Virus record (IMG/VR): IMGVR_UViG_2671181030_000005
Location: 1 to 12,830 of that record
From: a virus
Taxonomy: Duplodnaviria > Heunggongvirae > Uroviricota > Caudoviricetes
Length of the DNA stretch: 12,830 bases
Direction: 5' to 3' (one strand)
In this document: one piece after another, positions 1 through 12,830 of the stretch
Layout of the letters: each line of letters opens with the position of its first letter
Position numbering within the stretch: position 1 is the stretch's first letter
Notes under the pieces: generated by a model
The model's input: only the letters and a program-made list of their open reading frames with translations
What the model was told of the DNA's origin: nothing
Database searches by the model: none
Translations under genes and position numbers: made by a program

Positions 1-933
1 ATGGACAACGACAAAATTGATCAACACAGCGACGAAATTGAAGTTGAGAGCGAAGAAAAAGAGCGTGGCAAAAAAATAGAAATAGATGAAGATCGACTCC
101 CCTCCCGGGCGATGGCAATTCATGAGCATATCCGCCAGGATGGTGAAAAAGAGCTGGAACGCGACGCAATGGCACTACTGTGGTCAGCCATTGCGGCGGG
201 TCTGTCGATGGGCGCTTCATTACTGGCAAAAGGGATATTTCATGTCGAACTGGAAGGTGTGCCGGGCAGCTTCTTGCTGGAGAATCTCGGTTATACCTTT
301 GGTTTTATTATCGTCATTATGGCCCGCCAGCAATTATTTACCGAAAACACCGTAACTGCGGTACTACCCGTCATGCAAAAACCGACAATGAGCAACGTTG
401 GCTTACTTATGCGGTTATGGGGCGTCGTGCTGCTGGGTAATATTCTCGGGACAGGTATTGCGGCGTGGGCATTTGAATATATGCCAATCTTCAATGAAGA
501 AACTCGCGATGCATTTGTCAAAATCGGCATGGATGTGATGAAGAACACCCCCAGCGAGATGTTTGCCAACGCGATCATTTCCGGCTGGCTGATCGCCACT
601 ATGGTATGGATGTTTCCTGCAGCGGGTGCGGCAAAGATTGTGGTGATTATATTGATGACTTGGCTTATTGCCCTGGGTGACACCACTCACATCGTTGTCG
701 GTTCTGTTGAAATCCTCTATCTGGTGTTTAACGGTACGCTGCACTGGAGCGATTTCATCTGGCCCTTCGCACTACCTACTTTAGCGGGGAACATCTGCGG
801 CGGCACCTTTATCTTCGCGTTAATGAGTCATGCACAGATCCGTAACGACATGAGCAACAAGCGCAAAGCAGAAGCACGCCAAAAAGCAGAACGTGCGGAA
901 AACATTAAGAAAAATGATAAAAACCCGGCATAA
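1..933 (+). CDS. yfdC: Formate/nitrite transporter (FNT) family inner-membrane protein YfdC
   Basis: 310-aa ORF filling the whole interval; multiple hydrophobic segments; sequence recalled as E. coli YfdC, the gene that precedes argW in E. coli. Window begins at its ATG. Confidence 0.9.
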   Translation: MDNDKIDQHSDEIEVESEEKERGKKIEIDEDRLPSRAMAIHEHIRQDGEKELERDAMALLWSAIAAGLSMGASLLAKGIFHVELEGVPGSFLLENLGYTFGFIIVIMARQQLFTENTVTAVLPVMQKPTMSNVGLLMRLWGVVLLGNILGTGIAAWAFEYMPIFNEETRDAFVKIGMDVMKNTPSEMFANAIISGWLIATMVWMFPAAGAAKIVVIILMTWLIALGDTTHIVVGSVEILYLVFNGTLHWSDFIWPFALPTLAGNICGGTFIFALMSHAQIRNDMSNKRKAEARQKAERAENIKKNDKNPA

Positions 934-968
934 ATGGCGAGGGTTTAAGCAATCGAGCGGCAGCGTAC

Positions 969-997
969 TTACCCCGCAGTCCATTAGCGGGTATACT
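969..997 (+). promoter_or_regulatory. Putative sigma70 promoter of argW (-35 TTACCC, 17-bp spacer, -10 TATACT, GC-rich discriminator)
   Basis: TATACT at 992..997 lies 11 nt upstream of the mature tRNA 5' end; weak -35 at 969..974; GC-rich catgccgc between -10 and the tRNA is typical of tRNA promoters. Motif-based only. Confidence 0.3.
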
Positions 998-1008
998 CAT
1001 GCCGCATT

Positions 1009-1083
1009 GTCCTCTTAGTTAAATGGATATAACGAGCCCCTCCTAAGGGCTAATTGCAGGTTCGATTCCTGCAGGGGACACCA
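1009..1083 (+). tRNA. argW: tRNA-Arg (anticodon CCU), argW, complete with encoded CCA
   Basis: 75-nt sequence GTCCTCTTAGTTAAATGGATATAACGAGCCCCTCCTAAGGGCTAATTGCAGGTTCGATTCCTGCAGGGGACACCA; cloverleaf with anticodon loop CU-CCU-AA and T-arm GGTTCGATTCC; matches recalled E. coli argW. Confidence 0.95.
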
Positions 1084-1199
1084 TTTATCAGTTCGCTCCC
1101 ATCCGTACCAGTCCGTAAAATCCCCAGAATATCAAGCCTCCCGGAAACTAACAGTTCGTCATGGTTCGCTTCAGATCGTTGACAGCCGCACTCCATGAC

Positions 1200-1245
1200 G
1201 GGTAAAAAGTGGATAAAATAATTTTACCCACCGGATTTTTACCCA
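1200..1245. promoter_or_regulatory. Cluster of GGGTAAAA-type repeats (two direct, two inverted) just upstream of and overlapping the int start; candidate arm-type recombinase or AlpA binding sites
   Basis: gggtaaaaa (1200..1208), ggataaaata (1211..1220), ttttaccca (1222..1230, inverted) and tttttaccca (1236..1245, inverted). The same motif recurs as a tandem pair at 11049..11070 at the other end of the element. Confidence 0.3.
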
Positions 1246-2402
1246 TGCTCACCGTTAAGCAGATTGAAGCAGCAAAGCCGAAAGAAAAACCATACCGCCT
1301 TCTCGATGGTAATGGCCTGTACCTTTATGTTCCTGTATCCGGGAAAAAGGTATGGCAGCTTCGCTACAAGATTGACGGTAAGGAGAAAATCCTGACCGTC
1401 GGAAAATATCCGCTTATGACTTTGCAGGAAGCAAGGGATAAGGCATGGACTGCGAGGAAAGACATCTCGGTTGGCATCGATCCGGTAAAGGCGAAAAAGG
1501 CTTCGTCTAACAACAATTCATTTAGTGCGATTTACAAGGAGTGGTACGAGCACAAGAAGCAAGTCTGGTCAGTAGGCTATGCAACTGAACTTGCCAAAAT
1601 GTTTGATGACGACATTTTACCCATCATCGGCGGCCTTGAAATTCAGGATATTGAGCCGATGCAACTGCTGGAAGTAATCCGCAGATTTGAAGATCGCGGC
1701 GCAATGGAGAGAGCCAACAAAGCCCGCAGAAGATGCGGCGAGGTTTTCCGTTACGCTATTGTTACTGGTAGGGCTAAATATAACCCGGCACCTGACCTTG
1801 CTGACGCCATGAAGGGATACCGCAAGAAGAACTTCCCGTTTCTTCCTGCAGACCAGATCCCGGCATTCAACAAAGCACTGGCAACATTTTCAGGAAGTAT
1901 TGTATCGCTCATTGCGACCAAAGTTTTACGCTACACAGCCCTAAGAACGAAAGAGCTTCGTTCTATGCTATGGAAGAACGTCGATTTTGAAAACAGGATT
2001 ATCACCATCGACGCCAGTGTGATGAAAGGACGCAAAATTCATGTGGTCCCGATGTCAGACCAGGTGGTTGAACTTCTCACTACGTTAAGCTCCATCACCA
2101 AACCAGTATCAGAATTTGTTTTTGCCGGGCGCAACGATAAGAAGAAGCCAATCTGCGAGAACGCGGTGCTACTTGTGATCAAACAAATCGGCTATGAGGG
2201 TCTGGAAAGCGGTCACGGATTCAGACATGAATTCAGCACGATTATGAACGAGCACGAATGGCCTGCTGACGCTATTGAAGTGCAACTGGCACATGCCAAC
2301 GGCGGATCTGTGCGTGGGATTTACAACCATGCTCAGTATCTCGATAAGCGCAGAGAAATGATGCAGTGGTGGGCGGACTGGATTGATGAGAGGGTGGCAT
2401 AG
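1245..2402 (+). CDS. intS: Tyrosine recombinase / phage integrase, P4-IntS type
   Basis: 385 aa from ATG 1245 (MLTVKQIEAAKPKEKPYRLL...); C-terminal catalytic region HGFRHEF ... LAHANGGSVRGIYNHAQY with the terminal Tyr; position directly 3' of a tRNA gene. Recalled as near-identical to E. coli K-12 IntS (CPS-53). The ORF track starts at a GTG at 1209; I prefer the ATG at 1245. Confidence 0.9.
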   Translation: MLTVKQIEAAKPKEKPYRLLDGNGLYLYVPVSGKKVWQLRYKIDGKEKILTVGKYPLMTLQEARDKAWTARKDISVGIDPVKAKKASSNNNSFSAIYKEWYEHKKQVWSVGYATELAKMFDDDILPIIGGLEIQDIEPMQLLEVIRRFEDRGAMERANKARRRCGEVFRYAIVTGRAKYNPAPDLADAMKGYRKKNFPFLPADQIPAFNKALATFSGSIVSLIATKVLRYTALRTKELRSMLWKNVDFENRIITIDASVMKGRKIHVVPMSDQVVELLTTLSSITKPVSEFVFAGRNDKKKPICENAVLLVIKQIGYEGLESGHGFRHEFSTIMNEHEWPADAIEVQLAHANGGSVRGIYNHAQYLDKRREMMQWWADWIDERVA

Positions 2403-2536
2403 CGCCACCTATAAACCGTGCAATAATCAAACTCACATCGCATCGTTGATGATGTATGTTATCACTCCTAATGCAGCAGATGTCTCACAGAGGGCGCCAT
2501 TCTGCAACCAATCCATTCCCAATTTATCAGATTAAC

Positions 2537-4627
2537 CTACATATTCACGCATGATATATGCTCAATAATCACTGTCATCCGCCCGCTTGCAGCGGTGGTT
2601 CCAGCGATTTTTTTTACAACTAAATTGTTTTCAGCAACTGTGACCACGATAGATCCAACGTTTGTTTGTGTTTTTACTCCAGCGACTGATTCTATATAAT
2701 ATGGCAATGATAACCCGAAGAACCAGTATCCTTCTGTGAATAGCTTTGCTGCATGCTCATCCCTGTTTGAGTTATACATTACAGATATTTTTACTGCCGT
2801 TTTTCCATTTGTTGTCTTTATTGGTATTAAAAGTGTTGTAGATTCATTTTCAGCTACGTCTGCAGTTACTGCATAGATGCGTTGAGATGTATCGGAATTT
2901 ACGTTAGTTAGCGTATCAAACCCTCTGCAATTACTTACTTGACGAAATAAAACATCAAGAAAAGTTGTAACCCCTGGCAATGGGTCAAGATAATACAATG
3001 GTGCGATATTTCCATCGCCAAGATTGAGGTTTTGCACCCGTACTATAGCCTTCACATACGCAGAGGAACCTCTGCTTATTTGAATTACAGCAGTTGGCAC
3101 CGTTCCTGCCATTCCTGACGACTGAATGTTTCTGAAGATAACCTCTTTGAAGAGATATACATTAAAATTTGTGTTTCCTGTATTGCTATACAGAAATCCA
3201 ACATTCTCTATTATGGCATTACATTTTATATTTTCAGCAATGTAACCATCATATGTATTCGGCGAGTTATTATAAAATGATACCAGACGAGAGATAATAT
3301 CTGACGGATCTTCGCAGTTGACGTCAATATTTCGCAAAGAAATACCTCGAAATGTCGGTGCTCCACTGACAAGACCACCTGAAACGATTGACTGTGGGGC
3401 TGCTCCGTCAGCATAGAAGCAACTAAGTCCGTCTAGAGAACCTCCTGCCTGCAAGTCTACTGCTGACTGCCCAGCAGCAACAGCAAAGGCCTGTGTGCGC
3501 CGCTCTACAATATTGCTCACCCGAGAGTTCATTATCTGTGATTTGACTGATCTCTTCTGGCAGTCTTCAAAATACGAATCACTAATATCAAATACTGCTG
3601 ATAAATAGTTAGGGGATGATGCATATATCCCATCCGCATCCTGATATGGTCCAACTCGGAATACTGAAATATTCCTAACATAGCAATATTCAAAGTTTTG
3701 AACCATAAACCCGCGACCAACATTAGAACCACCTGAGCTTGAAATATCATAAGCTGAGGAATCTGACAGCCTAATCTCTTTCCATCTAAACAATGAGCCT
3801 GCCGTAATATATGCAGCAGTTGATAATCCTGTGTCAATTGCTTCCCTAGCGTTTCTTCCAGAATAGCCTGAAATAGATATTTTTGCGTTGTTATCGGATG
3901 AAAGCGCATAGAGTAGCTTTGCAGCATTGTTCTTGCCGTCAATGGCAATATCCTCTATGGAAAGAACGGATGAGCACGTTATTTTTAAAACAAATGGACT
4001 TACTGCTCCAGTATAGATAATAGTTCCATTTCTTATTGTTGTTTTTTTGTTGAAAACAACACTAATCATCTCGCTTGTTTTAATTGTCATTCCAGACAGG
4101 TCGATAACATACCCATCATATCTATTTAGCAAATAGATTAATTTTTCTCCTTCATCTGTCCCATCACCAGTTATTCCTGCCGATGATGGCGTAACATAAT
4201 ATATAGCACTTTGAACTGTTCCACCCTGCTGAAGGGGGATCATATCCGCACCTTTTCCTTTCCCTGTGGATGTAATTTCCTTCCTTAACTGATCAGGGTC
4301 GTATTTCAGCACATTAGGGAAATAAAACTGCTGCGCACCATATGCATCATAAACAGCCATAGAGTGGCCTTGCACAGTTACGAACTTGGCAATCTGTCCG
4401 TTATATACAGGATAACCAGCGGCGTTAATGATGATTGGCTGCGAAACAGGAACGTGAGAACCATCCTCATTCTCCACATAAACCTGAATCTGGTTTTCAG
4501 GATTTACCGGGTCAGTGTCAATTTTACCGATATAAATTTTACCATTGGCAACCGCTTTAAAAGAACGCGCCATAGTGAAGAGTTGCGAAGGCATGCTTAC
4601 CACAACATTTGCGGTGATATCTGACAT
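2537..4627 (-). CDS. P22-like tailspike protein (gene 9 homolog) with conserved N-terminal head-binding domain and divergent receptor-binding domain
   Basis: 696 aa from ATG at 4627 ([46 protein letters not shown]...), closely matching the recalled P22 gp9 N-terminus ([46 protein letters not shown]...); the remainder diverges from P22. GGAG 7 nt upstream of the ATG. The ORF-track N-terminal extension to 4726 has no homology and is rejected. Confidence 0.85.
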
Positions 4628-4747
4628 TTCATTGCTCCAGACGATGATATGATGCAACCATGATGTGATTGCATACCGAAATGGTACTATTGAGTATTTA
4701 TCCAGTAGGTTACGATGCCATTCCACCCAACTGGTGAGGCATCAAGG

Positions 4748-5014
4748 ATGTACAGCAAATACGATGAGGCGCAGTTTCACTTGAGACTTCCGCATGAACT
4801 CCACGCGAAAATTAAGCAGCGTGCGAAGATGAATAACAGATCTCTGAACTCAGAGATAATTGCAGCGATTGAAGAATCGTTGGCTAAACAAAGCTCTGCA
4901 TCCGTTTACATTGATGATGCAGAGCGTATGGCAGAACAACAATCTGATATGGTTAAGAAAATGGTATTTGAAACGCTTAAGACCATGTATAGCAATAATA
5001 AAAAGGAAACATAG
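4748..5014 (+). CDS. mnt: Mnt-like ribbon-helix-helix repressor (P22 immI-type)
   Basis: 88 aa from ATG 4748 (MYSKYDEAQFHLRLPHELHAKIKQRAKMNNRSLNSEIIAAIEESLAK...AERMAEQQSDMVKKMVFETLK), aligning with recalled P22 Mnt (…PHFNFRMPMEVREKLKFRAEANGRSMNSELLQIVQDALSK…AERLADEQSELVKKMVFDTLK). GAGG 8 nt upstream. Divergent from the tailspike gene as in the P22 immI region, but no arc or ant is present. Confidence 0.8.
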   Translation: MYSKYDEAQFHLRLPHELHAKIKQRAKMNNRSLNSEIIAAIEESLAKQSSASVYIDDAERMAEQQSDMVKKMVFETLKTMYSNNKKET

Positions 5015-5084
5015 AAATCTAGTTTCCGGCTAAAATGGCATAGCCTTCATGATATCCTGTGAAAAACTAAGGAGAGTTAACCAT

Positions 5085-5570
5085 ATGAAAAAATCACTGT
5101 TAATTATCCCGCTTCTGCTGGTTGGATGCGCAAAAGTAAGTGACTATCAAGCAAGTTGCGAACAACGCTATCAAAAGCTTAGCGATATGGCTAATTGCCT
5201 TGATGCCAGTGTGAAGAACGACTCACGCATGGCATCAGCACCAACACCTAAGCTGTATGTCCTTGCTGCAAAGATGCTCGGGCAAGGTGTCGATGAAGGC
5301 AAGATAAGTGACGCACAGGCAAGACTTGAGCTTCAGAATCTTTATGTTCAATTACAAAGCCAAGAACAAGCCCAACAAATAGCACAAAGCCAAGCATTCC
5401 AGCAGGCTTTATTGAATTATCAGGCTGTAAACACAATGCAAGCGATCGAGCAAAAAGCGCGCCAGCCTGTTATAACTCAACCTTACCCAACACGCGTTGA
5501 CACATATACAAACTGCAATTCAGGATTTGGAAACACGGTAACATGCAACAGTAGCAGTAACATCAGATAA
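5085..5570 (+). CDS. Predicted lipoprotein with Gln-rich region, unknown function (occupies the sieA-like position between mnt and the ejection-type genes)
   Basis: 161 aa from ATG 5085; signal peptide MKKSLLIIPLLLVGC with lipobox LVGC; AAGGAG 10 nt upstream; Q-rich segment QLQSQEQAQQIAQSQAFQQALLNYQ. No family recognised. Confidence 0.7.
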   Translation: MKKSLLIIPLLLVGCAKVSDYQASCEQRYQKLSDMANCLDASVKNDSRMASAPTPKLYVLAAKMLGQGVDEGKISDAQARLELQNLYVQLQSQEQAQQIAQSQAFQQALLNYQAVNTMQAIEQKARQPVITQPYPTRVDTYTNCNSGFGNTVTCNSSSNIR

Positions 5571-6018
5571 CAATCAGCAAAGGTACCTTTGCAGAGGTGG
5601 CGCGCTGTTCGACTGTTGAGTCTGTCACCGGGTCACCCGCCCATTGAGCAAAGCGATCATCAACGTAACCGCGGCCTTCAGGTCCTGGCGTATATTCACC
5701 ACGCTTTGCCTTCATAACGTTGCCGGGACCGTCGTGATAAGCCTGAAGAGCGTCACGCCAGTTACCAAACTGCTGGTACATCTTTGCCAGATAGCGCGCG
5801 CCAGCGTCAGCTTGATATTCGGGGTTTTGCATTTGCTCATCGGTATAACCCATATCACGCCATGTCCCAGGCATGACCTGAGTCAATCCTACAGCCCCGG
5901 CGGAGCTTACTGCGGCAGGGTTGTAAGAAGACTCCTTGGCACCCAGTGCAGTCATCAACCCTTCTGGCACACCGTAACGTGCGCCAGCCTGCTCTAACAA
6001 ATCACGGTAATTAGCCAT
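5563..6018 (-). CDS. Lytic transglycosylase (SLT domain) protein, no signal peptide
   Basis: 151 aa; SLT catalytic motif region GAKESSYNPAAVSSAGAVGLTQVMPGTW and downstream AYHDGPG; start ATG follows, in the same frame, the TAA stop of the upstream 381-aa ORF. Confidence 0.8.
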   Translation of the reverse strand: MANYRDLLEQAGARYGVPEGLMTALGAKESSYNPAAVSSAGAVGLTQVMPGTWRDMGYTDEQMQNPEYQADAGARYLAKMYQQFGNWRDALQAYHDGPGNVMKAKRGEYTPGPEGRGYVDDRFAQWAGDPVTDSTVEQRATSAKVPLLIVI

Positions 6019-7164
6019 TTACTGCCCCAAAGATGGAAGATATCCGTAGCGATTAATGAAGTCGATTGACAGCTCGGGGTGCTGCTTCAGGTAATCTATA
6101 GAAGCCTGAGGCGCTTCCACTCGCTTGATACCGTTTTGCTGAACGTACTTACCAACCGCCTCATTACGCTTCTGGTTGAGCGTGTTCAGGATGACGCCAG
6201 CGTTGCGACGAAAGGACTCCTCGCTCTGCGAGTTCTGCAGCGAACCAACAGCCTGGTCGAGCTTTTTGCCCTCGGCATCAGAAAGTGCGCCCATGCCTCG
6301 CATGGCCTGAACCGCTGTCAGGTATGCTTGTGATTTAAAGGTATCAAGTCGTGCCTGAGTGTCTGCAGCCTGTGAGCCTGGAACGTTGGGGATTACTCCA
6401 CGTAAGCCTGTAATGCTCTTAAGTGAAGGAGAACTAACGATATCGTTCAGAGTGAACATGCTGGTTGTGAGGGTGTTGATGCCGTCTTTGTAGCCATCAT
6501 TTAGCGCTTGCTGCTTCTGCTGCAACTGCTGGTTGTTGGCTGCTATGCGGCTCTGTATTTCCTGGCGCTTCAGGTCGTTAGTTTCTGCTGATAGCATCCG
6601 GTCAAGGCGCTTATTTTCGTTGTTAATGCGGTTTGTTTCTGCGTCCAGATTAATGCGCTGCTGACCTAAATTCGCCTGGATATCTTGTCCGCGCATTGTG
6701 ATTGCCTGATTCCGAGCGGCGGTTTGCGAATCCAGATCCTGACCGCGCATGGTAACCTGGCGACCCTGCATTTTATCCTGTAGGTCAAAGTATTTTTCGG
6801 GCCCGAGACTGTTCATCCCCAGGTGATCGACAAATTCGACGAACTGCCGCGGGTTCTGTTGGTACATCTGAGCGACGTCATGAGGATTAACGCCAACACG
6901 AGCTAACTCACCGGCGTTGTTTTGCAGCCATGATTGCATTGCTTCTGGAGACGATGACGCAAGGCGTGCGCCAGCCGCTAAGGTGCCGATAGAATTACGC
7001 TGGTCTTCATCAATGAATCCCATGCCTTTACGAACGGATTCAATCTGGTCTGGATATTGAGTAATCTCGTTAGCAACGCGCATGAAACCATCTTCGGTAT
7101 CTGCCACGCGATGCTCCACGACCTCCAGTTGAGGCCTGTAATCAGCTAACTTAACGACGCCCAT
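6019..7164 (-). CDS. Gln/Asn-rich phage structural protein, candidate ejection (DNA-transfer) protein; function uncertain
   Basis: 381-aa ORF, long uninterrupted; low-complexity coiled-coil-like Q/N-rich middle; lies where P22-like phages place ejection genes, upstream of the immI and tailspike region; directly followed in frame by the SLT ORF. Family assignment is positional inference, not motif-proven. Confidence 0.5.
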   Translation of the reverse strand: MGVVKLADYRPQLEVVEHRVADTEDGFMRVANEITQYPDQIESVRKGMGFIDEDQRNSIGTLAAGARLASSSPEAMQSWLQNNAGELARVGVNPHDVAQMYQQNPRQFVEFVDHLGMNSLGPEKYFDLQDKMQGRQVTMRGQDLDSQTAARNQAITMRGQDIQANLGQQRINLDAETNRINNENKRLDRMLSAETNDLKRQEIQSRIAANNQQLQQKQQALNDGYKDGINTLTTSMFTLNDIVSSPSLKSITGLRGVIPNVPGSQAADTQARLDTFKSQAYLTAVQAMRGMGALSDAEGKKLDQAVGSLQNSQSEESFRRNAGVILNTLNQKRNEAVGKYVQQNGIKRVEAPQASIDYLKQHPELSIDFINRYGYLPSLGQ

Positions 7165-7312
7165 GTTTCACTCCTGCTTTGGCTAGTCTGTAAACACCAA
7201 CAAGGCGCTCTGCGAACGCCCTGTTATTTGCTGCGGCTACCACTAATCCCTCAGGTGAATCAGGGTGTCGAATCTCTTCTTTTTCCTGGTATTTCTTACG
7301 ACGTTTTGTCAT
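7151..7312 (-). CDS. Small basic ORF (53 aa), possible deletion-junction fusion ORF
   Basis: ATG at 7312 with AGGAG 7 nt upstream; MTKRRKKYQEKEEIRHPDSPEGLVVAAANNRAFAERLVGVYRLAKAGVKHGRR; overlaps the start of the 381-aa gene by 14 nt; sits 32 bp downstream of the cII-like stop. Below the 60-aa cutoff of the ORF track; found by manual translation. Confidence 0.3.
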   Translation of the reverse strand: MTKRRKKYQEKEEIRHPDSPEGLVVAAANNRAFAERLVGVYRLAKAGVKHGRR

Positions 7313-7344
7313 AATTACTCCTGTGGATTGATCCAGTAATTCCC

Positions 7345-7641
7345 TCAGAATTGCATATCAATTTGCTCAGAATCCTCGGTGGCAGCCGGGGATTTTTTCT
7401 TTGTGATTCCATCCAATGCATACTTAAAAGCCCTGCTAATCGGACTGATGTCTGATGCCATTCCGAAAGCACACAAGACCGAAGCAATAAATCTCCAGTC
7501 CGTTCTGCTTATCTTCGATTCATGACAGCCAATCATCTTTGCCAGACCGCGCTGGGTAAGCGTTGACAGGTTGATGAGTAAATCAGTTTCAGCGCGATCA
7601 ATTTCTCGCTGTGTTGGCTTGCTATAACTTGCTTGTGTCAT
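7345..7641 (-). CDS. cII: CII-family transcriptional activator (lambda CII-like)
   Basis: 98 aa; C-terminus TKKKSPAATEDSEQIDMQF resembles recalled lambda CII C-terminus (TNKKRPAATERSEQIQMEF); helix-turn-helix-like core ...GLAKMIGCHESKISR...; located immediately downstream of cro on the same strand, as in lambda. Confidence 0.7.
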   Translation of the reverse strand: MTQASYSKPTQREIDRAETDLLINLSTLTQRGLAKMIGCHESKISRTDWRFIASVLCAFGMASDISPISRAFKYALDGITKKKSPAATEDSEQIDMQF

Positions 7642-7725
7642 TTGTTAATTTTCCAATAGTGAATAGTTAGTTGAAAGGTATGCGTGGAAACGCATATGGC
7701 CTTAGTTGGTCAGATATCTTGGGGC

Positions 7726-7740
7726 TCGCTTTGTCAGCGA
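7726..7740 (-). promoter_or_regulatory. nutR-like boxB hairpin (TCGCT-GACAA-AGCGA on the minus strand) between cro and cII
   Basis: 5-bp stem with GACAA pentaloop, the loop I recall for P22-type boxB; a boxA-like CGCTCTTT lies upstream on the same strand (about 7766..7774). Motif-level call. Confidence 0.4.
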
Positions 7741-7778
7741 CGTAGGACGAATGTCCATTGTGAAAAGAGCGGTGTTAC

Positions 7779-7979
7779 TTATGCAGTTGTTTTTTTGTTA
7801 CTTGGGAAGGGCTTTATTTCTTCCGCATAAACGCTTCCATCAGCGTTTATAGTTAAAAAAATCTTTCGGCCTGCATGAATGGCCTTGTTAATCGCGCTTT
7901 GATATACGCCGAGATCTTTAGCCGTCTTGGTTTGCCCAAAGCGTATTGCATAATCTTTCAGGGTTATGCGTTGTTCCAT
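7779..7979 (-). CDS. cro: Cro repressor, lambda type
   Basis: 66 aa [66 protein letters not shown]; differs from recalled lambda Cro at about two positions (M12I, V55I); AAGGAGG 7-8 nt upstream of ATG. Confidence 0.95.
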
Positions 7980-8002
7980 ACAACCTCCTTAGTACAGGCA
8001 AC

Positions 8003-8069
8003 CATTATCACCGCTAGAGGTAAAATAGTCAACACGCACGGTGTTAGAAGTTTATCCCTTGCGGTGATA
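8003..8069. promoter_or_regulatory. Lambda-type right operator region: OR1 (8006..8022), OR2 (8030..8046), OR3 (8053..8069) with divergent PR (toward cro) and PRM (toward cI)
   Basis: Three 17-bp operators: TATCACCGCTAGAGGTA, CAACACGCACGGTGTTA, TATCCCTTGCGGTGATA; PR -35 TTGACT and -10 GATAAT on the minus strand; layout as in lambda. Confidence 0.85.
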
Positions 8070-8076
8070 GATTTAA

Positions 8077-8793
<717 letters not shown>

Positions 8794-8824
8794 TTGTTTT
8801 ATTTTTCACGTAATAGGATGATTT

Positions 8825-9166
8825 ATGACACAATTTCAACTTGCATTAATCGCTAGAGAAGTTGATGGAGAAGTCATCCATCTTCGCACCAAAGACGGAT
8901 ACATCAATGCCACCGCGATGTGCAAGTCTGCGGGGAAGCTACTTGCTGACTATACACGACTAAAAACAACACAAGATTTTTTTGATGAATTATCACGCGA
9001 TATGGGGATTCCCATATCGGAGTTAATTCAATCATTTAAAGGCGGAAGAGCAGAGAATCAAGGGACTTGGGTTCATCCAGACATCGCAATTAATTTAGCT
9101 CAGTGGCTATCTCCAAAATTTGCAGTGCAAGTATCGAGATGGGTGCGTGAGTGGATGTCAGGTTAA
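8825..9166 (+). CDS. KilA-N domain protein (N-terminal part of a probably larger ancestral gene)
   Basis: 113 aa; KilA-N/Bro-N-like features (…DGEVIHLRTKDGYINATAMCKSAG…GTWVHPDIAINLAQWLSPKFAVQVSRWV); AGGA 6 nt upstream; sits downstream of cI where lambda has rexAB. Its TAA stop is in frame with the next ORF. Confidence 0.7.
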   Translation: MTQFQLALIAREVDGEVIHLRTKDGYINATAMCKSAGKLLADYTRLKTTQDFFDELSRDMGIPISELIQSFKGGRAENQGTWVHPDIAINLAQWLSPKFAVQVSRWVREWMSG

Positions 9167-9205
9167 AGAGCGCCTGCCGAACTCCCTATCCACCTTAAGC
9201 GGTAT

Positions 9206-9584
9206 ATGACAAACCGAGGCAGAGTTCCTCATACGCACTTTTCTATGCTTAATGAACTGACGTTTAACTTGGTTGCGCCACTTGAACAGGCCGGATATAC
9301 GCTGCCAGAAAAAATGGTCCCTGATATTTCAGAGGGTAGGGTTTTCTCGCAATGGCTCCGTGACAACCGGGGGGTTGAGCCGAAGACATTCCCAACATAT
9401 AACCATGAGTACCCAGATGGCCGGACATTCCCGGTACGTCTATACCCAAACGAATATTGCAGATTTCAAACAATACTTCAACGAAGTGTGGCTGCCTCAG
9501 TACGCTCCTAAATATTTTGCTGAACGAGACCAAAGGGCATTGACGTTGATTGAGAAAATCATGCTACCTGACCTTGATTCCTAA
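9206..9584 (+). pseudogene. Disrupted ORF: continuation of the KilA-N gene, carrying an in-frame stop (9164..9166) and a frameshift near 9450..9460
   Basis: ORF 9206..9511 is in the same frame as the KilA-N ORF, separated by a single TAA; a second overlapping ORF in another frame runs to 9584 and ends just before a terminator hairpin. ATG 8825 to stop 9584 is 760 nt (3n+1), which fits one extra base in an ancestral 252-codon gene. No convincing RBS before 9206. Confidence 0.5.
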
Positions 9585-9592
9585 ATGTTATT

Positions 9593-9614
9593 CCCGGCCA
9601 CAGAGCCGGGTTTT
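9593..9614 (+). terminator. Rho-independent terminator ending the cI operon
   Basis: Stem CCCGGC / GCCGGG (9593..9598 and 9605..9610) with 6-nt loop, followed by TTTTCTTT. Confidence 0.6.
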
Positions 9615-9770
9615 CTTTGCCTCACGATCCCCCTCACCCAAGAACACATAACCAATTGTATCTATTTGAAAATAAATAGATACAACTCACTAAACATAGC
9701 AGTTCAGATCTCTCACCTACCAAACAATGCACCACTGCAAAAAATAAATTCATATAAAAAACATACAGAT

Positions 9771-9833
9771 AACCATCTGCGGTGATGAATTATCTCTAGC
9801 GGTGTTGAAATAAATACCACTGGCGGTGATACT
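9771..9833 (+). promoter_or_regulatory. Lambda-type left operator region: OL3 (9771..9787), OL2 (9791..9807), OL1 (9815..9831) with PL (-35 TTGAAA 9805..9810, -10 GATACT 9828..9833)
   Basis: AACCATCTGCGGTGATG, TATCTCTAGCGGTGTTG, TACCACTGGCGGTGATA; 17-bp spacer between -35 and -10; matches recalled lambda OL/PL apart from single-base differences. Confidence 0.8.
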
Positions 9834-9902
9834 AAACACATCAGCAGGACGCACTACTCACCAGGGCGGTGAATATACAACGATTCAAATATGAATCTAC
9901 GG

Positions 9903-9917
9903 CGCTGACAAAGCGCA
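9903..9917 (+). promoter_or_regulatory. nutL-like boxB hairpin (GCGCT-GACAA-AGCGC) in the PL leader
   Basis: Perfect 5-bp stem with GACAA pentaloop about 62 nt downstream of the predicted PL start; matches recalled P22-type boxB. No N-like (Arg-rich) ORF follows. Confidence 0.45.
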
Positions 9918-9979
9918 ATAACCAAAGTGAACTTTGGGGTGAATGCAGAAGCTAACCTTCTCGGCGGAGGCGCTTTGCA

Positions 9980-10273
9980 ATGATTACGCTAAGCGAAATG
10001 CTTCGCTCATATAAACCAGATGAACACACTAAGGACGCTAACGAAACAAACGCTGGTTGGATAAGCTGTAGTGAGCGAATGCCGAACGATAAACAGTATG
10101 TTTGGTGTTGGGGTAAGTCTTACGGCTGGACTGAGTGCGATACCTTCGAAGGGTATTACGATTGGTCGAGAAACAAATGGTGGGCAGTTACTGACGATGG
10201 GGAAGAACCGGCATCGAAAGTAACCCACTGGATGCCGCTACCAGAACCGCCTCAGGAGGTTAACCGTGGCTAA
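9980..10273 (+). CDS. DUF551-like phage early protein
   Basis: 97 aa; GGAGG 9 nt upstream; Trp- and Cys-rich with C-terminal VTHWMPLPEPP, a motif I associate with DUF551 proteins of lambdoid early-left operons. Confidence 0.7.
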   Translation: MITLSEMLRSYKPDEHTKDANETNAGWISCSERMPNDKQYVWCWGKSYGWTECDTFEGYYDWSRNKWWAVTDDGEEPASKVTHWMPLPEPPQEVNRG

Positions 10274-10304
10274 CCTGCAACTTGCCGTAAAAGGTGAATA
10301 ACAA

Positions 10305-10360
10305 TCCTCGCACTCGCGGGGATTTCTTTTATCTGAACTCGCTACGGCGAGTTTTGTTTT
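10305..10360 (+). terminator. Tandem Rho-independent terminators downstream of the DUF551-like gene
   Basis: Hairpin 1: TCCTCGC / GCGGGGA (one G-U pair) with loop ACTC, then TTTCTTTT (10305..10330). Hairpin 2: AACTCGC / GCGAGTT with loop TACG, then TTGTTTT (10336..10360). Confidence 0.6.
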
Positions 10361-10373
10361 ATGGAGACAAGAA

Positions 10374-10718
10374 ATGTCAGATTTGGCTATGAAGGTTTTG
10401 AAATGGCAATCAACTGGCGATGTCGGCATCAGTAGCGCAACTCTTGCCTCAATCGCATGTGGCCTGAAAAAGAATATCTATGGTCATCACTTCGGCGCTC
10501 CCCATGACGCAGACGATTTCCAACGATGCGTTGCGCTTGTTGAGCAGATTCCAGAAATCAGAGATTCATTCGACAAGGTTGCAAAGCGCGTTCCGGCATT
10601 CAAAGGAATCCTCAACGAATGGGATTCCCTAGTTGCTCTGTTGAAGTCGGAAATGAAGATACACGGAAACAAAGCACCAGAGACTTACAGAAGAATCAGA
10701 GAGCTACGCAAGGACTAA
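10374..10718 (+). CDS. Hypothetical protein, 114 aa, no recognised family
   Basis: GGAG 7 nt upstream of ATG; uninterrupted ORF with ordinary amino-acid composition (MSDLAMKVLKWQSTGDVGISSATLASIACGLKK...); bracketed by terminators on both sides. Confidence 0.6.
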   Translation: MSDLAMKVLKWQSTGDVGISSATLASIACGLKKNIYGHHFGAPHDADDFQRCVALVEQIPEIRDSFDKVAKRVPAFKGILNEWDSLVALLKSEMKIHGNKAPETYRRIRELRKD

Positions 10719-10788
10719 CCATAAAATAACACCGCCTCACACTCGATGATGCCTGTTCATTGCTCAATGATATCCAGACCTACCATCG

Positions 10789-10808
10789 CCGCATCAATGC
10801 GGTTTTTT
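10789..10808 (+). terminator. Rho-independent terminator
   Basis: Stem CCGCA / TGCGG with loop TCAA followed by TTTTTT (to 10808). Confidence 0.55.
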
Positions 10809-10816
10809 ATTGCCTG

Positions 10817-10834
10817 ATTTGCAGGTTCGATTCC
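10817..10834 (+). repeat. Partial direct repeat of the argW T-arm region (16 identical bp, TTGCAGGTTCGATTCC)
   Basis: Matches argW positions 1054..1069 exactly; flanks diverge on both sides. Confidence 0.6.
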
Positions 10835-10853
10835 CTATTCGGAGATAGCACTC

Positions 10854-11054
10854 ATGCAACACGAACTACAGCCTGATTCACTGGTTGATTTGAAATTCAT
10901 CATGGCCGATACTGGCTTCGGTAAAACCTTCATCTATGATCGGATTAAGTCCGGAGACCTTCCAAAAGCCAAAGTTATCCACGGGCGAGCAAGATGGTTA
11001 TATCGTGACCATTGTGAATTCAAAAATAAGCTCTTAAGCCGCGCCAATGGGTAA
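10854..11054 (+). CDS. AlpA-family small DNA-binding protein (excisionase / recombination directionality factor candidate)
   Basis: 66 aa MQHELQPDSLVDLKFIMADTGFGKTFIYDRIKSGDLPKAKVIHGRARWLYRDHCEF...; matches the AlpA/Xis-type HTH pattern; GGAG 9 nt upstream; located at the element end opposite the integrase. Confidence 0.75.
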   Translation: MQHELQPDSLVDLKFIMADTGFGKTFIYDRIKSGDLPKAKVIHGRARWLYRDHCEFKNKLLSRANG

Positions 11055-11070
11055 AATAGCGGGTAAAATA
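11049..11070 (+). repeat. Tandem direct repeat GGGTAAAATA-GC-GGGTAAAATA; candidate arm-type binding sites
   Basis: Two identical 10-mers at 11049..11058 and 11061..11070, overlapping the AlpA-like stop codon; same motif family as the repeats at 1200..1245. Confidence 0.35.
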
Positions 11071-11122
11071 TTTCTCACATCTAAAAAATACCATTCCAAT
11101 CAATCCCCTGCCGCTTCAAGTA

Positions 11123-11140
11123 GATGTCTGCAGGGGACAC
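11123..11140 (+). repeat. Partial direct repeat of the argW 3' end (CTGCAGGGGACAC); candidate attR core of the element
   Basis: 13 identical bp matching argW 1068..1080, with GAT two bases upstream also matching; sequence beyond differs from that following the intact tRNA. Confidence 0.6.
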
Positions 11141-11582
11141 TAGATACCCTTCATACGAAATCTACCTTCACCCCGTAAAAGATGGGTTTGGCAGCACACT
11201 TGCCTTATATCTACTCATTTTTACTGCAACAGGTTGAAATCTCAGCACTGTCAGAAAGCGCTGATGACTAAACAGCCCTGGGCCGGGCGATGTAACCATC
11301 ACACAGAATCCTGATAGCGAAATATGGCGTGACTCGATACTTCACTCCGCAATGCATTCCTTGATGAATTCGCAGGACCGTGATACACGGGACAGGTCGC
11401 TGAATGACGACAATGTCCTGGAAATCAGCGAACCGCGCATCTGAAGTACATTTGAGCGACTGTACCAGAACATGAATGAGGCGTTTGGATTAGGTGATTA
11501 TTAGCAGGGCTAAGCACTTTAGTATTATTATTTTCCGGTTGAGGGATAGGGAGATATCGACAACAACCGGAAAAGTTTACGT

Positions 11583-12830
11583 CTATATTGCTGAAGGTAC
11601 AGGCGTTTCCATAACTATTTGCTCGCGTTTTTTACTCAGGAAGAAAATGCCAAATAGCAACATCAGGCAGACAATACCCGAAATTGCGAAGAAAACTGTC
11701 TGGTAGCCTGCGTGGTCAAAGAGTATCCCAGTCGGCGTTGAAAGCAGCACAATCCCAAGCGAACTGGCAATTTGAAAACCAATCAGAAAGATCGTCGACG
11801 ACAGGCGCTTATCAAAGTTTGCCACGCTGTATTTGAAGACGGATATGACACAAAGTGGAACCTCAATGGCATGTAACAGCTTCACTAATGAAATAATCCA
11901 GGGGTTAACGAACAGCGCGCAGGAAAGGATACGCAACGCCATAATCACAACACCGATAAGTAATGCATTTTTTGGCCCTACCCGATTCACAAAGAAAGGA
12001 ATAATCGCCATGCACAGCGCTTCGAGTACCACCTGGAATGAGTTGAGATAACCATACAGGCGCGTTCCTACATCGTGTGATTCGAATAAACCTGCATAAA
12101 AGACAGGAAAAAGTTGTTGATCAAAAATGTTATAGAAAGACCACGTCCCCACAATAAATATGACGAAAACCCAGAAGTTTCGATCCTTGAAAACTGCGAT
12201 AAAATCCTCTTTTTTTACCCCTCCCGCATCCGCCGCTACGCACTGGTGATCCTTATCTTTAAAACACATGTTGATCATCATAAATACAGCGCCAAATAGC
12301 GAGACCAACCAGAAGTTGATATGGGGACTGATACTAAAAAATATGCCGGCAAAGAACGCGCCAATAGCATAGCCAAAAGATCCCCAGGCGCGCGCTGTTC
12401 CATATTCGAAATGAAAATTTCGCGCCATTTTTTCGGTGAAGCTGTCAAGCAAACCGCATCCCGCCAGATACCCCAGGCCAAAAAAGAGCGCCCCCAGAAT
12501 TAGACCTACAGAAAAATTGCTTTGCAGTAACGGTTCATAAACGTAAATCATAAACGGTCCGGTCAAGACCAGGATGAAACTCATACACCAGATGAGCGGT
12601 TTCTTCAGACCGAGTTTATCCTGAACGATGCCGTAGAACATCATAAATAGAATGCTGGTAAACTGGTTGACCGAATAAAGTGTACCTAATTCCGTCCCTG
12701 TCAACCCTAGATGTCCTTTCAGCCAAATAGCGTATAACGACCACCACAGCGACCAGGAAATAAAAAAGAGAAATGAGTAACTGGATGCAAAACGATAGTA
12801 CGCATTTCTGAATGGAATATTCAGTGCCAT
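11583..12830 (-). CDS. cscB: Sucrose:H+ symporter CscB (LacY-family MFS permease)
   Basis: 415-aa ORF whose ATG is the last three bases of the window; MALNIPFRNAYYRFASSYSFLFFISWSLWWSLYAIWLKGHLG... recalled as CscB of the chromosomal csc sucrose regulon (E. coli W / EC3132 type); 12-TM-like hydrophobic profile. Confidence 0.9.
   Translation of the reverse strand: MALNIPFRNAYYRFASSYSFLFFISWSLWWSLYAIWLKGHLGLTGTELGTLYSVNQFTSILFMMFYGIVQDKLGLKKPLIWCMSFILVLTGPFMIYVYEPLLQSNFSVGLILGALFFGLGYLAGCGLLDSFTEKMARNFHFEYGTARAWGSFGYAIGAFFAGIFFSISPHINFWLVSLFGAVFMMINMCFKDKDHQCVAADAGGVKKEDFIAVFKDRNFWVFVIFIVGTWSFYNIFDQQLFPVFYAGLFESHDVGTRLYGYLNSFQVVLEALCMAIIPFFVNRVGPKNALLIGVVIMALRILSCALFVNPWIISLVKLLHAIEVPLCVISVFKYSVANFDKRLSSTIFLIGFQIASSLGIVLLSTPTGILFDHAGYQTVFFAISGIVCLMLLFGIFFLSKKREQIVMETPVPSAI

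Follow-up and report, generated by a model that had tools for sequence, protein, structure and literature searches.

The gene order int–attP–xis is the hallmark of the recombination module that KplE1, HK620, Sf6 and CUS-3 share at the argW transfer RNA (tRNA) gene (Panis et al.; PMC2951348, PMC3509656). The IntS/TorI module was shown experimentally to excise KplE1 (CPS-53) of Escherichia coli K-12 (PMC2951348, PMC3509656). KplE1 is excisable yet not SOS-inducible, and the region of its attL arm contains the promoter PintS and the binding sites of IntS and TorI (PMC2951348). Here a 12,830-nt window of the E. coli chromosome (IMG/VR record IMGVR_UViG_2671181030_000005, positions 1 to 12,830) was analyzed, in which a 10,074-bp element is inserted at argW. 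This element is very probably a passively inherited, recently decayed remnant of an Sf6/HK620-type (P22-like lambdoid) phage of about 39 kb. It joins the defective IntS/TorI prophages already known at argW, and differs from KplE1 in its internal content and in the CI module that it retains.

The window consisted of yfdC (1-933), argW, the inserted element and cscB (11583-12830, minus strand). Against the free phages Dewey and IME10, homology began exactly at 1069 and ended at 11140, and both ends of the element mapped onto one attP core in these phage genomes. The element was delimited as 1069-11142, because the ends of the phage homology and the att cores coincided there. A first-pass annotation, made from the sequence alone, had placed argW repeats about 10 kb apart as the boundaries, and its coordinates were right within 2 nt. 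Insertion in argW with the core repeated at both ends is the arrangement of the KplE1/CPS-53-type module. As in that module, intS adjoined attL and pointed the same way as the tRNA gene, and torI, uncoupled from int in transcription, was found opposite to it, at the attR end, 74 nt from the attR core.

Comparison with KplE1/CPS-53 showed the same argW site and 15-nt core, with intS at attL and torI at attR, and the size from core to core was 10,059 bp here and 10,215 bp in K-12. IntS had two to three differences from K-12 IntS (383 of 386 aligned positions identical, stop codon counted), and the attL and attR arms were 95-97% identical to those of K-12. The integrase and the AlpA-like recombination directionality factor proposed in the first-pass annotation correspond to IntS, which has the Pfam integrase domains, and to TorI, which is identical to the K-12 protein. 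However, the contents differed: K-12 has gtrABS-type genes, tail-fibre assembly remnants and yfdM-T without a CI module (PMC2951348), whereas the present element carried a tailspike gene, mnt, fragments of ejection genes and cI, cro, OR and OL of lambda specificity, and its right flank was the csc locus, not dsdC. The stretch of about 440 bp between attR and cscB (11143-11582) differed from K-12, where dsdC follows the element, and was annotated as a fragment of a DUF4942 gene in strains 1190 and GPEC87-32-644. It looks like a scar left by another island at the border of the csc sucrose locus.

A 16-nt segment at 10819-10834 (TTGCAGGTTCGATTCC) was an exact copy of window positions 1054-1069 in argW. 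It stood just before the ribosome-binding site of torI, some 290 nt away from the att core. All IntS/TorI modules examined had this copy, namely those of K-12 CPS-53, of five further E. coli prophages and of the free phages IME10 and Dewey. The 3' half of argW is thus carried by the phage split around torI.

The gene order of the element was that of Sf6, HK620, CUS-3, IME10 and Dewey (Lederbergvirus), namely int, tailspike, ejection genes, cII, cro, cI, pL and xis, with the attP core between int and xis. DNA identity to the P22-like phages reached 95-99.6% in intS, the head-binding domain, the gp20/gp16 junction region and torI. The circular map of Dewey reads gp20, DNA-transfer protein, tailspike, int, attP, xis, early-left genes, N, cI, cro, cII, replication genes, nin, Q, lysis genes and head genes; when this circle is opened at attP, exactly the gene order of the window results.

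A larger prophage was found at the same site. In strain 1190, an apparently complete prophage of 38,932 bp was located between argW and cscB, with lambda-type cI, rexA and rexB, a full P22-like virion module, an ejection protein with an SLT domain, intS and torI. The window aligned to it in colinear blocks of 89-99% identity. Unlike the P22-like phages and the 1190 prophage, the element had lost about 29 kb (replication, nin, Q, lysis, head, N and recombination genes), had a different receptor-binding domain in the tailspike, and had a broken bstA-family gene (bstA') in place of rexAB. The first-pass description of a highly reduced lambdoid prophage with lambda-type cI/cro and a P22-type tailspike therefore holds. 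Its description of lambda immunity combined with P22 late genes at argW as a notable mosaic does not, since the order is the standard one of Sf6, HK620 and Dewey and strain 1190 carries the same combination; the combination is thus an existing phage type. The Cro of strain 1190 had the same protein accession (WP_000437871.1) as the cro product of strain EC2641, and 1008S19 and ML35 carried the same cI/cro allele in other lambdoid backgrounds.

The deletion endpoints, which the first-pass annotation had proposed to map by BLAST against P22-like and lambda-like relatives, were located at three junctions, J1 (5583), J2 (7061-7063) and J3 (9991/9992). The parental phage would have integrated in argW through the IntS/TorI module. 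Its attP lies between int and xis, so that intS and the tailspike end of the prophage adjoin attL, and torI with the early-left end adjoins attR. Of this prophage, three illegitimate deletions would then have removed the C-terminal part of about 650 codons of the SLT gene, the DNA from about codon 34 of O to about codon 98 of the gp20-type gene, and N with most of the early-left operon. The survivors would be the DNA next to attL and attR and an island between two deletions. The crossovers of J1 and J2 were both at a 3-nt GTA microhomology. The 10.07 kb kept and the roughly 29 kb lost amount to roughly 39 kb.

The junctions were reflected in the ejection genes. The ORF (open reading frame) at J2 was a fusion of 381 aa that had been overlooked in the first-pass annotation; its residues 1-35 matched the O-like PHROGs 2365, 345 and 277, and its residues 34-375 matched positions 98-435 of the 435 of PHROG 2534. 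The ORF at J1 had been called a transglycosylase; the SLT lytic transglycosylase domain was there, but only the N-terminal 145 codons of the gene remained (a pseudogene in PGAP), and full-length SLT ejection genes of 2394 nt were found in KD602 and strain 1190. The region 7064-7133 was considered as a separate middle fragment and rejected; it is the start of O in another allelic form (O157-type, KD602-type), contiguous from 7061. J1 itself formed a perfect 16-bp palindrome (GCAAAGGTACCTTTGC) with a KpnI site, which arose from a 9-nt inverted complementarity of the parental sequences, and on the minus strand it scored as a terminator-like hairpin just past the truncated SLT ORF.

N, replication, nin, Q, lysis and head genes were absent from the element, as the first-pass annotation had stated. 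Of the gp7/gp20/gp16-type ejection proteins and the portal/coat/scaffold module of P22-like phages, a C-terminal gp20 fragment and an N-terminal fragment at the gp16 position were found, with no head genes. The element is therefore a remnant and not a phage.

The window was compared with 5,426 complete E. coli genomes at a cut-off of at least 80% coverage, and only EC2641 matched. Each query spanning J1, J2 or J3 was likewise found whole in one genome of the set. EC2641 differed from the window by three single-nucleotide polymorphisms (SNPs) and a 1.33-kb insertion of an IS3-family insertion sequence (IS) in the tailspike gene, and its junctions were identical. Prophage regions bear repeats and are prone to misassembly, so that misassembly of a full-length prophage, by collapse or chimerism, was considered; with the same junctions in an independent complete genome, such an artefact is hardly credible. 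A satellite resembling the phage-inducible chromosomal islands (PICI), or a mobilisable island exploiting a helper phage, would also be of about 10 kb and carry an integrase, an AlpA-like directionality factor and a cI-type repressor in a tRNA gene. However, Pfam and PHROG searches of the ORFs revealed neither a primase nor a replication initiator, and genes for packaging or capsid redirection and pac/cos candidates were likewise not identified; every segment was 89-100% identical in DNA to colinear parts of complete P22-like or lambdoid phages with the breaks inside genes; and the arrangement was confined to one lineage. A satellite is accordingly extremely unlikely. The features of the element are listed in Table 1.

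Table 1. Features of the argW element and its left flank in the 12,830-nt window.
Feature	Position	Strand	Basis and remarks
argW, tRNA-Arg(CCU)	1009-1083	+	ARAGORN; Rfam tRNA 63.4 bits; last 15 nt are the attL core
attL core CTGCAGGGGACACCA	1069-1083	.	Dewey/IME10 homology begins at 1069; same core flanks all argW elements examined
attL arm, overlapping the intS promoter region	1084-1244	+	Core-to-ATG stretch 168/176 identical to K-12 CPS-53 attL
intS, tyrosine integrase, 385 aa, apparently intact	1245-2402	+	Pfam Phage_integrase, Phage_int_M, Arm-DNA-bind_3
Tailspike, 695 aa, full length	2537-4624	-	P22 gp9-type; Pfam Head_binding PF09008, E=4e-66, residues 1-112
Mnt-like ribbon-helix-helix repressor, 88 aa	4748-5014	+	Pfam Arc E=8e-15, Repressor_Mnt E=4e-12
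Lipoprotein, 161 aa	5085-5570	+	LVGC lipobox; PHROG 6067 (uncharacterised family) end to end
SLT ORF fragment, 151 aa	5563-6018	-	First 145 codons of a ~797-aa gp16-position ejection protein and 6 out-of-context codons; Pfam SLT; PHROG 21143 positions 1-145/576; PGAP pseudogene
J1	5583-5585 (GTA), inside palindrome 5577-5592	.	SLT codon 145 joined to DNA 61 nt past the stop of the gene; loss ~2.0 kb vs KD602
Fusion ORF, 381 aa	6019-7164	-	~34 codons of replication gene O and C-terminal ~348 codons of gp20-type ejection protein, in frame; Pfam Inj_translocase, PHROGs, BLAST breakpoints
J2	7061-7063 (GTA)	.	O codon ~34 joined in frame to gp20-type codon ~98; loss ~21.5 kb vs strain 1190
Conserved ORF between cII and O (orf53), 53 aa	7151-7312	-	PHROG 1331 end to end; 100% DNA identity to IME10 and KD602
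cII, HK97/mEp234 type	7345-7641	-	Pfam Phage_CII E=5e-34; 37/98 identical to lambda CII; 96% DNA identity to mEp234
cro, lambda type	7779-7979	-	64/66 identical to lambda Cro; Pfam Cro
Right operator region: OR1 8006-8022, OR2 8030-8046, OR3 8053-8069	8004-8073	.	Alignment to lambda; promoter scan
pR and pRM	pR -35 at 8032 to -10 at 8004; pRM -10 8068-8073	- (pR)	pRM -10 TAGATT
cI repressor, lambda immunity, 237 aa	8080-8793	+	233/237 identical to lambda CI; Pfam HTH_3, Peptidase_S24
bstA-family (KilA-N) pseudogene in the rexAB slot	8825-9584	+	Alignment to intact 253-aa ML35 homologue; E114* at 9164, 2-nt deletion ~9456
Terminator-like hairpin ending the cI-bstA' transcript	9593-9610	+	Terminator scan; by alignment, counterpart of the lambda terminator after rexB
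OL3 9771-9787, OL2 9791-9807, OL1 9815-9831; pL 9805-9833	9771-9833	+	pL -35 TTGAAA instead of TTGACA
boxB-like nutL hairpin GCGCTGACAAAGCGC	9902-9916	+	Read from the sequence; N itself deleted
Truncated DUF551 gene, fused at J3 to 4 codons of pL leader	9980-10273	+	Pfam DUF551; PGAP 'missing N-terminus'; 1008S19 homology ends at 9991
J3	9991/9992	.	pL leader upstream of N joined to the middle of the DUF551 gene; loss ~5.4 kb
Early-left ORF, 114 aa, uncharacterised	10374-10718	+	PHROG 1229 end to end; present in mEp234, ZY22049 and strain 1190
Terminator-like hairpin 10788-10803 and 16-nt exact argW T-arm copy 10819-10834	10788-10834	+	Just upstream of torI
torI, recombination directionality factor, 66 aa	10854-11054	+	100% (66/66) identical to K-12 TorI; PHROG 66 excisionase
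attR core CTGCAGGGGACACTA	11128-11142	.	Repeat of CTGCAGGGGACACCA with one mismatch, C to T at 11141

The Rfam scan of the window matched the tRNA alone, and no known small RNA was found.

The genes kept in the element had been regarded in the first-pass annotation as a non-random set, from which a domesticated remnant conferring immunity or exclusion was proposed. On the full form of this reading, the host would keep cI, Mnt, the lipoprotein and the tailspike for that purpose, and the deletions would have been selected. This explanation is unlikely, and the evidence bearing on it is given below with each gene group. The proposal was not supported by the survey, since the three junctions were private to one lineage and at least four of the kept genes were fragments or pseudogenes (the SLT fragment, the O–gp20 fusion, the bstA-family gene and the DUF551 gene). 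With all three junctions private to one lineage among the 5,426 genomes, there has been no time for visible selection. Full-length frames were kept for mnt, the lipoprotein, the tailspike, intS and torI, as domestication would have it; however, they are uninformative on selection, because the lineage is private and only three SNPs separate the window from its sole close relative. Conservation of the arrangement across diverged hosts, which domestication would lead one to expect, was not seen: coverage of at least 80% was confined to the single genome named above.

In favour of domestication, cI, cro and the operators were intact and near-identical to those of lambda. The QAGM cleavage site and the GNSM and FKKL motifs were present in CI. 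OR2, OR3 and OL1 were identical to the lambda operators, and OR1, OL2 and OL3 had one mismatch each, which agrees with the first-pass view that the operators looked intact. The OR1 variant was shared with mEp234, a viable phage of lambda immunity, and the pRM -35 variant with the apparently complete prophage of strain 1190; both variants are natural alleles and not decay. The lambda-type switch proposed in the first-pass annotation was right for cI and cro, but not for cII, which was of the HK97/mEp234 type.

Compared with lambda and the mEp234, HK106 and HK97 group, OR1-3, OL1-3, pR, pRM and pL were conserved, and the region from the start of O through cI was 96% identical in DNA to mEp234. 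In contrast to lambda, the element had a non-lambda cII, a dead bstA-family gene in place of rexAB, a different boxB in nutL, no N and a pL -35 of TTGAAA. The boxB-like hairpin GCGCTGACAAAGCGC presumably matches P22 boxB. pL, OL1-3 and the boxB-like hairpin (9771-9916) were kept despite the loss of N. With CI and Cro of lambda specificity and six cognate 17-bp operators, the element carries by sequence an imm-lambda region, and cI-mediated immunity to lambda-immunity phages is a reasonable prediction.

The one recognisable defence gene of the element, of the bstA family, was dead, which argues against domestication. In the BstA system of BTP1, a KilA-N gene comes directly after the prophage repressor gene and has a terminator of its own (Owen et al. 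2021, PMC8585504). The element had the same arrangement, but here the gene was inactivated by E114* and the 2-nt deletion. The KilA-N ORF spanned 8825-9166 (113 aa) with a frame-shifted continuation to 9584, and the 253-aa homologue of ML35 matched PHROG 6287 'BstA' end to end (E=1.8e-82). A full-length member of the family has a KilA-N domain at its N-terminus and the BstA domain at its C-terminus; here the agreement with BstA covered the position and the N-terminal 113 aa, and the frame was broken. The possibility that the ORF is an intact 113-aa gene was rejected on the alignment with the ML35 allele. The identical dead allele was also found in 1008S19, inside a much larger siphovirus-type prophage at argW.

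The tailspike was full length and 691 of its 695 residues were identical to the copy in HCP6S3_I2, which was intact and lay inside a near-complete P22-like prophage. The receptor-binding part (residues of about 175-695; 2537-4100) gave no tblastn match in 50,697 phage records, and its DNA was found in two of the 5,426 E. coli genomes, EC2641 and HCP6S3_I2. PHROG 8280 (a 'colanic acid degradation' tailspike) aligned to the tailspike only up to residue 373. In EC2641, the gene was split by the IS3-family element (EC2641 locus 7487-8854), which stands against its being kept by the host; the corresponding site of the window (4487-4503) was empty. The IS was flanked by a 15-17-bp direct repeat of the target sequence (AATCTGGTTTTCAGGAT). 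A length of 15-17 bp is long for the target duplication of an IS3-family element.

To the right of the tailspike gene, the first-pass identifications of Mnt and of a lipoprotein were confirmed, as was that of the P22-type tailspike, by the Arc and Repressor_Mnt domains, the LVGC lipobox and the Head_binding domain, respectively. No arc or ant gene was found beside the Mnt-like gene. The intergenic region between tailspike and mnt was searched for a Mnt operator; all it contained was an imperfect, weak inverted repeat of 9 nt (4652-4674), without a convincing promoter.

The lipoprotein gene lay between mnt and the ejection genes, which is the position of sieA in P22 (PMC10883804), and this speaks for domestication. 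Besides the lipobox, the protein had four further conserved cysteines. It had 94 homologues in Enterobacterales, all annotated as 'hypothetical', and was conserved in Escherichia, Citrobacter, Serratia, Klebsiella, Yersinia, Morganella and Providencia; in P22-like prophages of Serratia it was in the same slot, beside the gp16 gene and near the tailspike. However, no function could be assigned to the protein: no Pfam, PADLOC or PDB sequence match was obtained, the AlphaFold model from an alignment of 29 sequences had a pLDDT of only 64 with a helical core at residues 17-100, and a Foldseek search of the model against the PDB gave nothing below E=0.9. The gene is a candidate moron or exclusion gene.

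Other decayed prophages at argW were compared. Independent remnants were found in K-12 (10.2 kb), GPEC87-32-644 (10.3 kb), H2 (8.9 kb), 1EC187 (6.2 kb) and ZY22049 (19.6 kb), and in strain 41, where the right end was lost. The small remnants kept the attL-proximal block and lacked the immunity region. The complete loss of the immunity region from other argW remnants tells against domestication, and retention of att-proximal genes is expected from internal deletions alone. Domestication would also fit the nature of the lost functions, since replication, lysis, N and, judged from intact relatives, kil are those that damage the host. For the tailspike, five independent remnants had no left breakpoint in int or the tailspike, which gave a rough p of about 0.1 under uniform breakpoints and was not significant; retention in the remnants was not shown to exceed what internal deletions conditioned on kept ends would give. 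Chimeric junctions were also seen in the argW series: a helicase gene was joined to a terminase gene in KD602, and a gp4 fragment lay beside the helicase gene in ZY22049.

From the anatomy of the remnant, its behaviour can be predicted as follows. CI expressed from pRM would repress pR and pL, and the host would be immune to lambda-immunity phages. After cleavage of CI, pR would express cro, cII, orf53, the O–gp20 fusion and the SLT fragment, while transcripts from pL would cover the nutL leader and the DUF551 fragment and, without N, end at the hairpins before torI. Terminator-like hairpins were found between pL and torI at 10303-10354 and 10788-10803; because of these and of the loss of N, cleavage of CI would not efficiently induce excision. 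IntS, TorI, attL and attR would still be capable of excision if TorI were supplied, as in K-12 KplE1, so that basal or ectopic TorI would be needed; in the KplE1-type module, excision depends on IntS, TorI and IHF. The element would be unable to replicate, to lyse the cell or to form particles.

The three SNPs between the window and EC2641 were polarized. Two were derived in the window, the one in the -35 of pL (9809) and the one at position 14 of the 15-nt attR core (11141); the third, IntS E321D, two residues before the HGFRH box, was derived in EC2641. The pL change was unique among the 5,426 genomes, and the T allele at 11141 was found in none of them. Chance or a sequencing error could account for the two changes in the window, as could selection acting against excision and pL activity. 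Because they hit control sites of excision and of early transcription, they would, if adaptive, point to a locking of mobility, in which a grounded lambda-immunity island of cI, Mnt and the lipoprotein was selected for its immobilisation itself. This is quite improbable; if true, the host would lock in a lambda-immunity cassette by disabling its mobility.

Several points weigh against the explanation by passive decay. The intS-tailspike-mnt block was intact in several independent argW remnants, which domestication would also predict and which could reflect selection and not position alone. In place of the exact parental phage, the relatives 1190 and KD602 served to estimate the sizes of the deletions, and no right-hand parent was found for J3. 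As terminators, the hairpins between pL and torI were matches of a consensus scan only. The attR-core mismatch and the change in the pL -35 may leave excision and pL impaired rather than functional. Passive inheritance of a recently decayed remnant nevertheless remains by far the most probable explanation of the element.

The direct value of the element is modest. It documents a dead gene of the bstA family and a widely conserved, uncharacterised lipoprotein at the sieA slot of P22-like prophages. With CI beside IntS and TorI, unlike KplE1, it could serve as a natural test of the coupling between repressor and excision. The argW series of decayed IntS/TorI prophages, taken with the apparently complete 38.9-kb one, would suit a quantitative analysis of how prophages decay. 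The element is a fully mapped case in which a P22-like prophage of about 39 kb was reduced to about 10 kb by three microhomology or illegitimate deletions, with an apparently complete relative at the same site. The surviving genes, which look non-random, follow from the geometry of the prophage, in which attP separates int from xis and the immunity region is flanked by two deletions.

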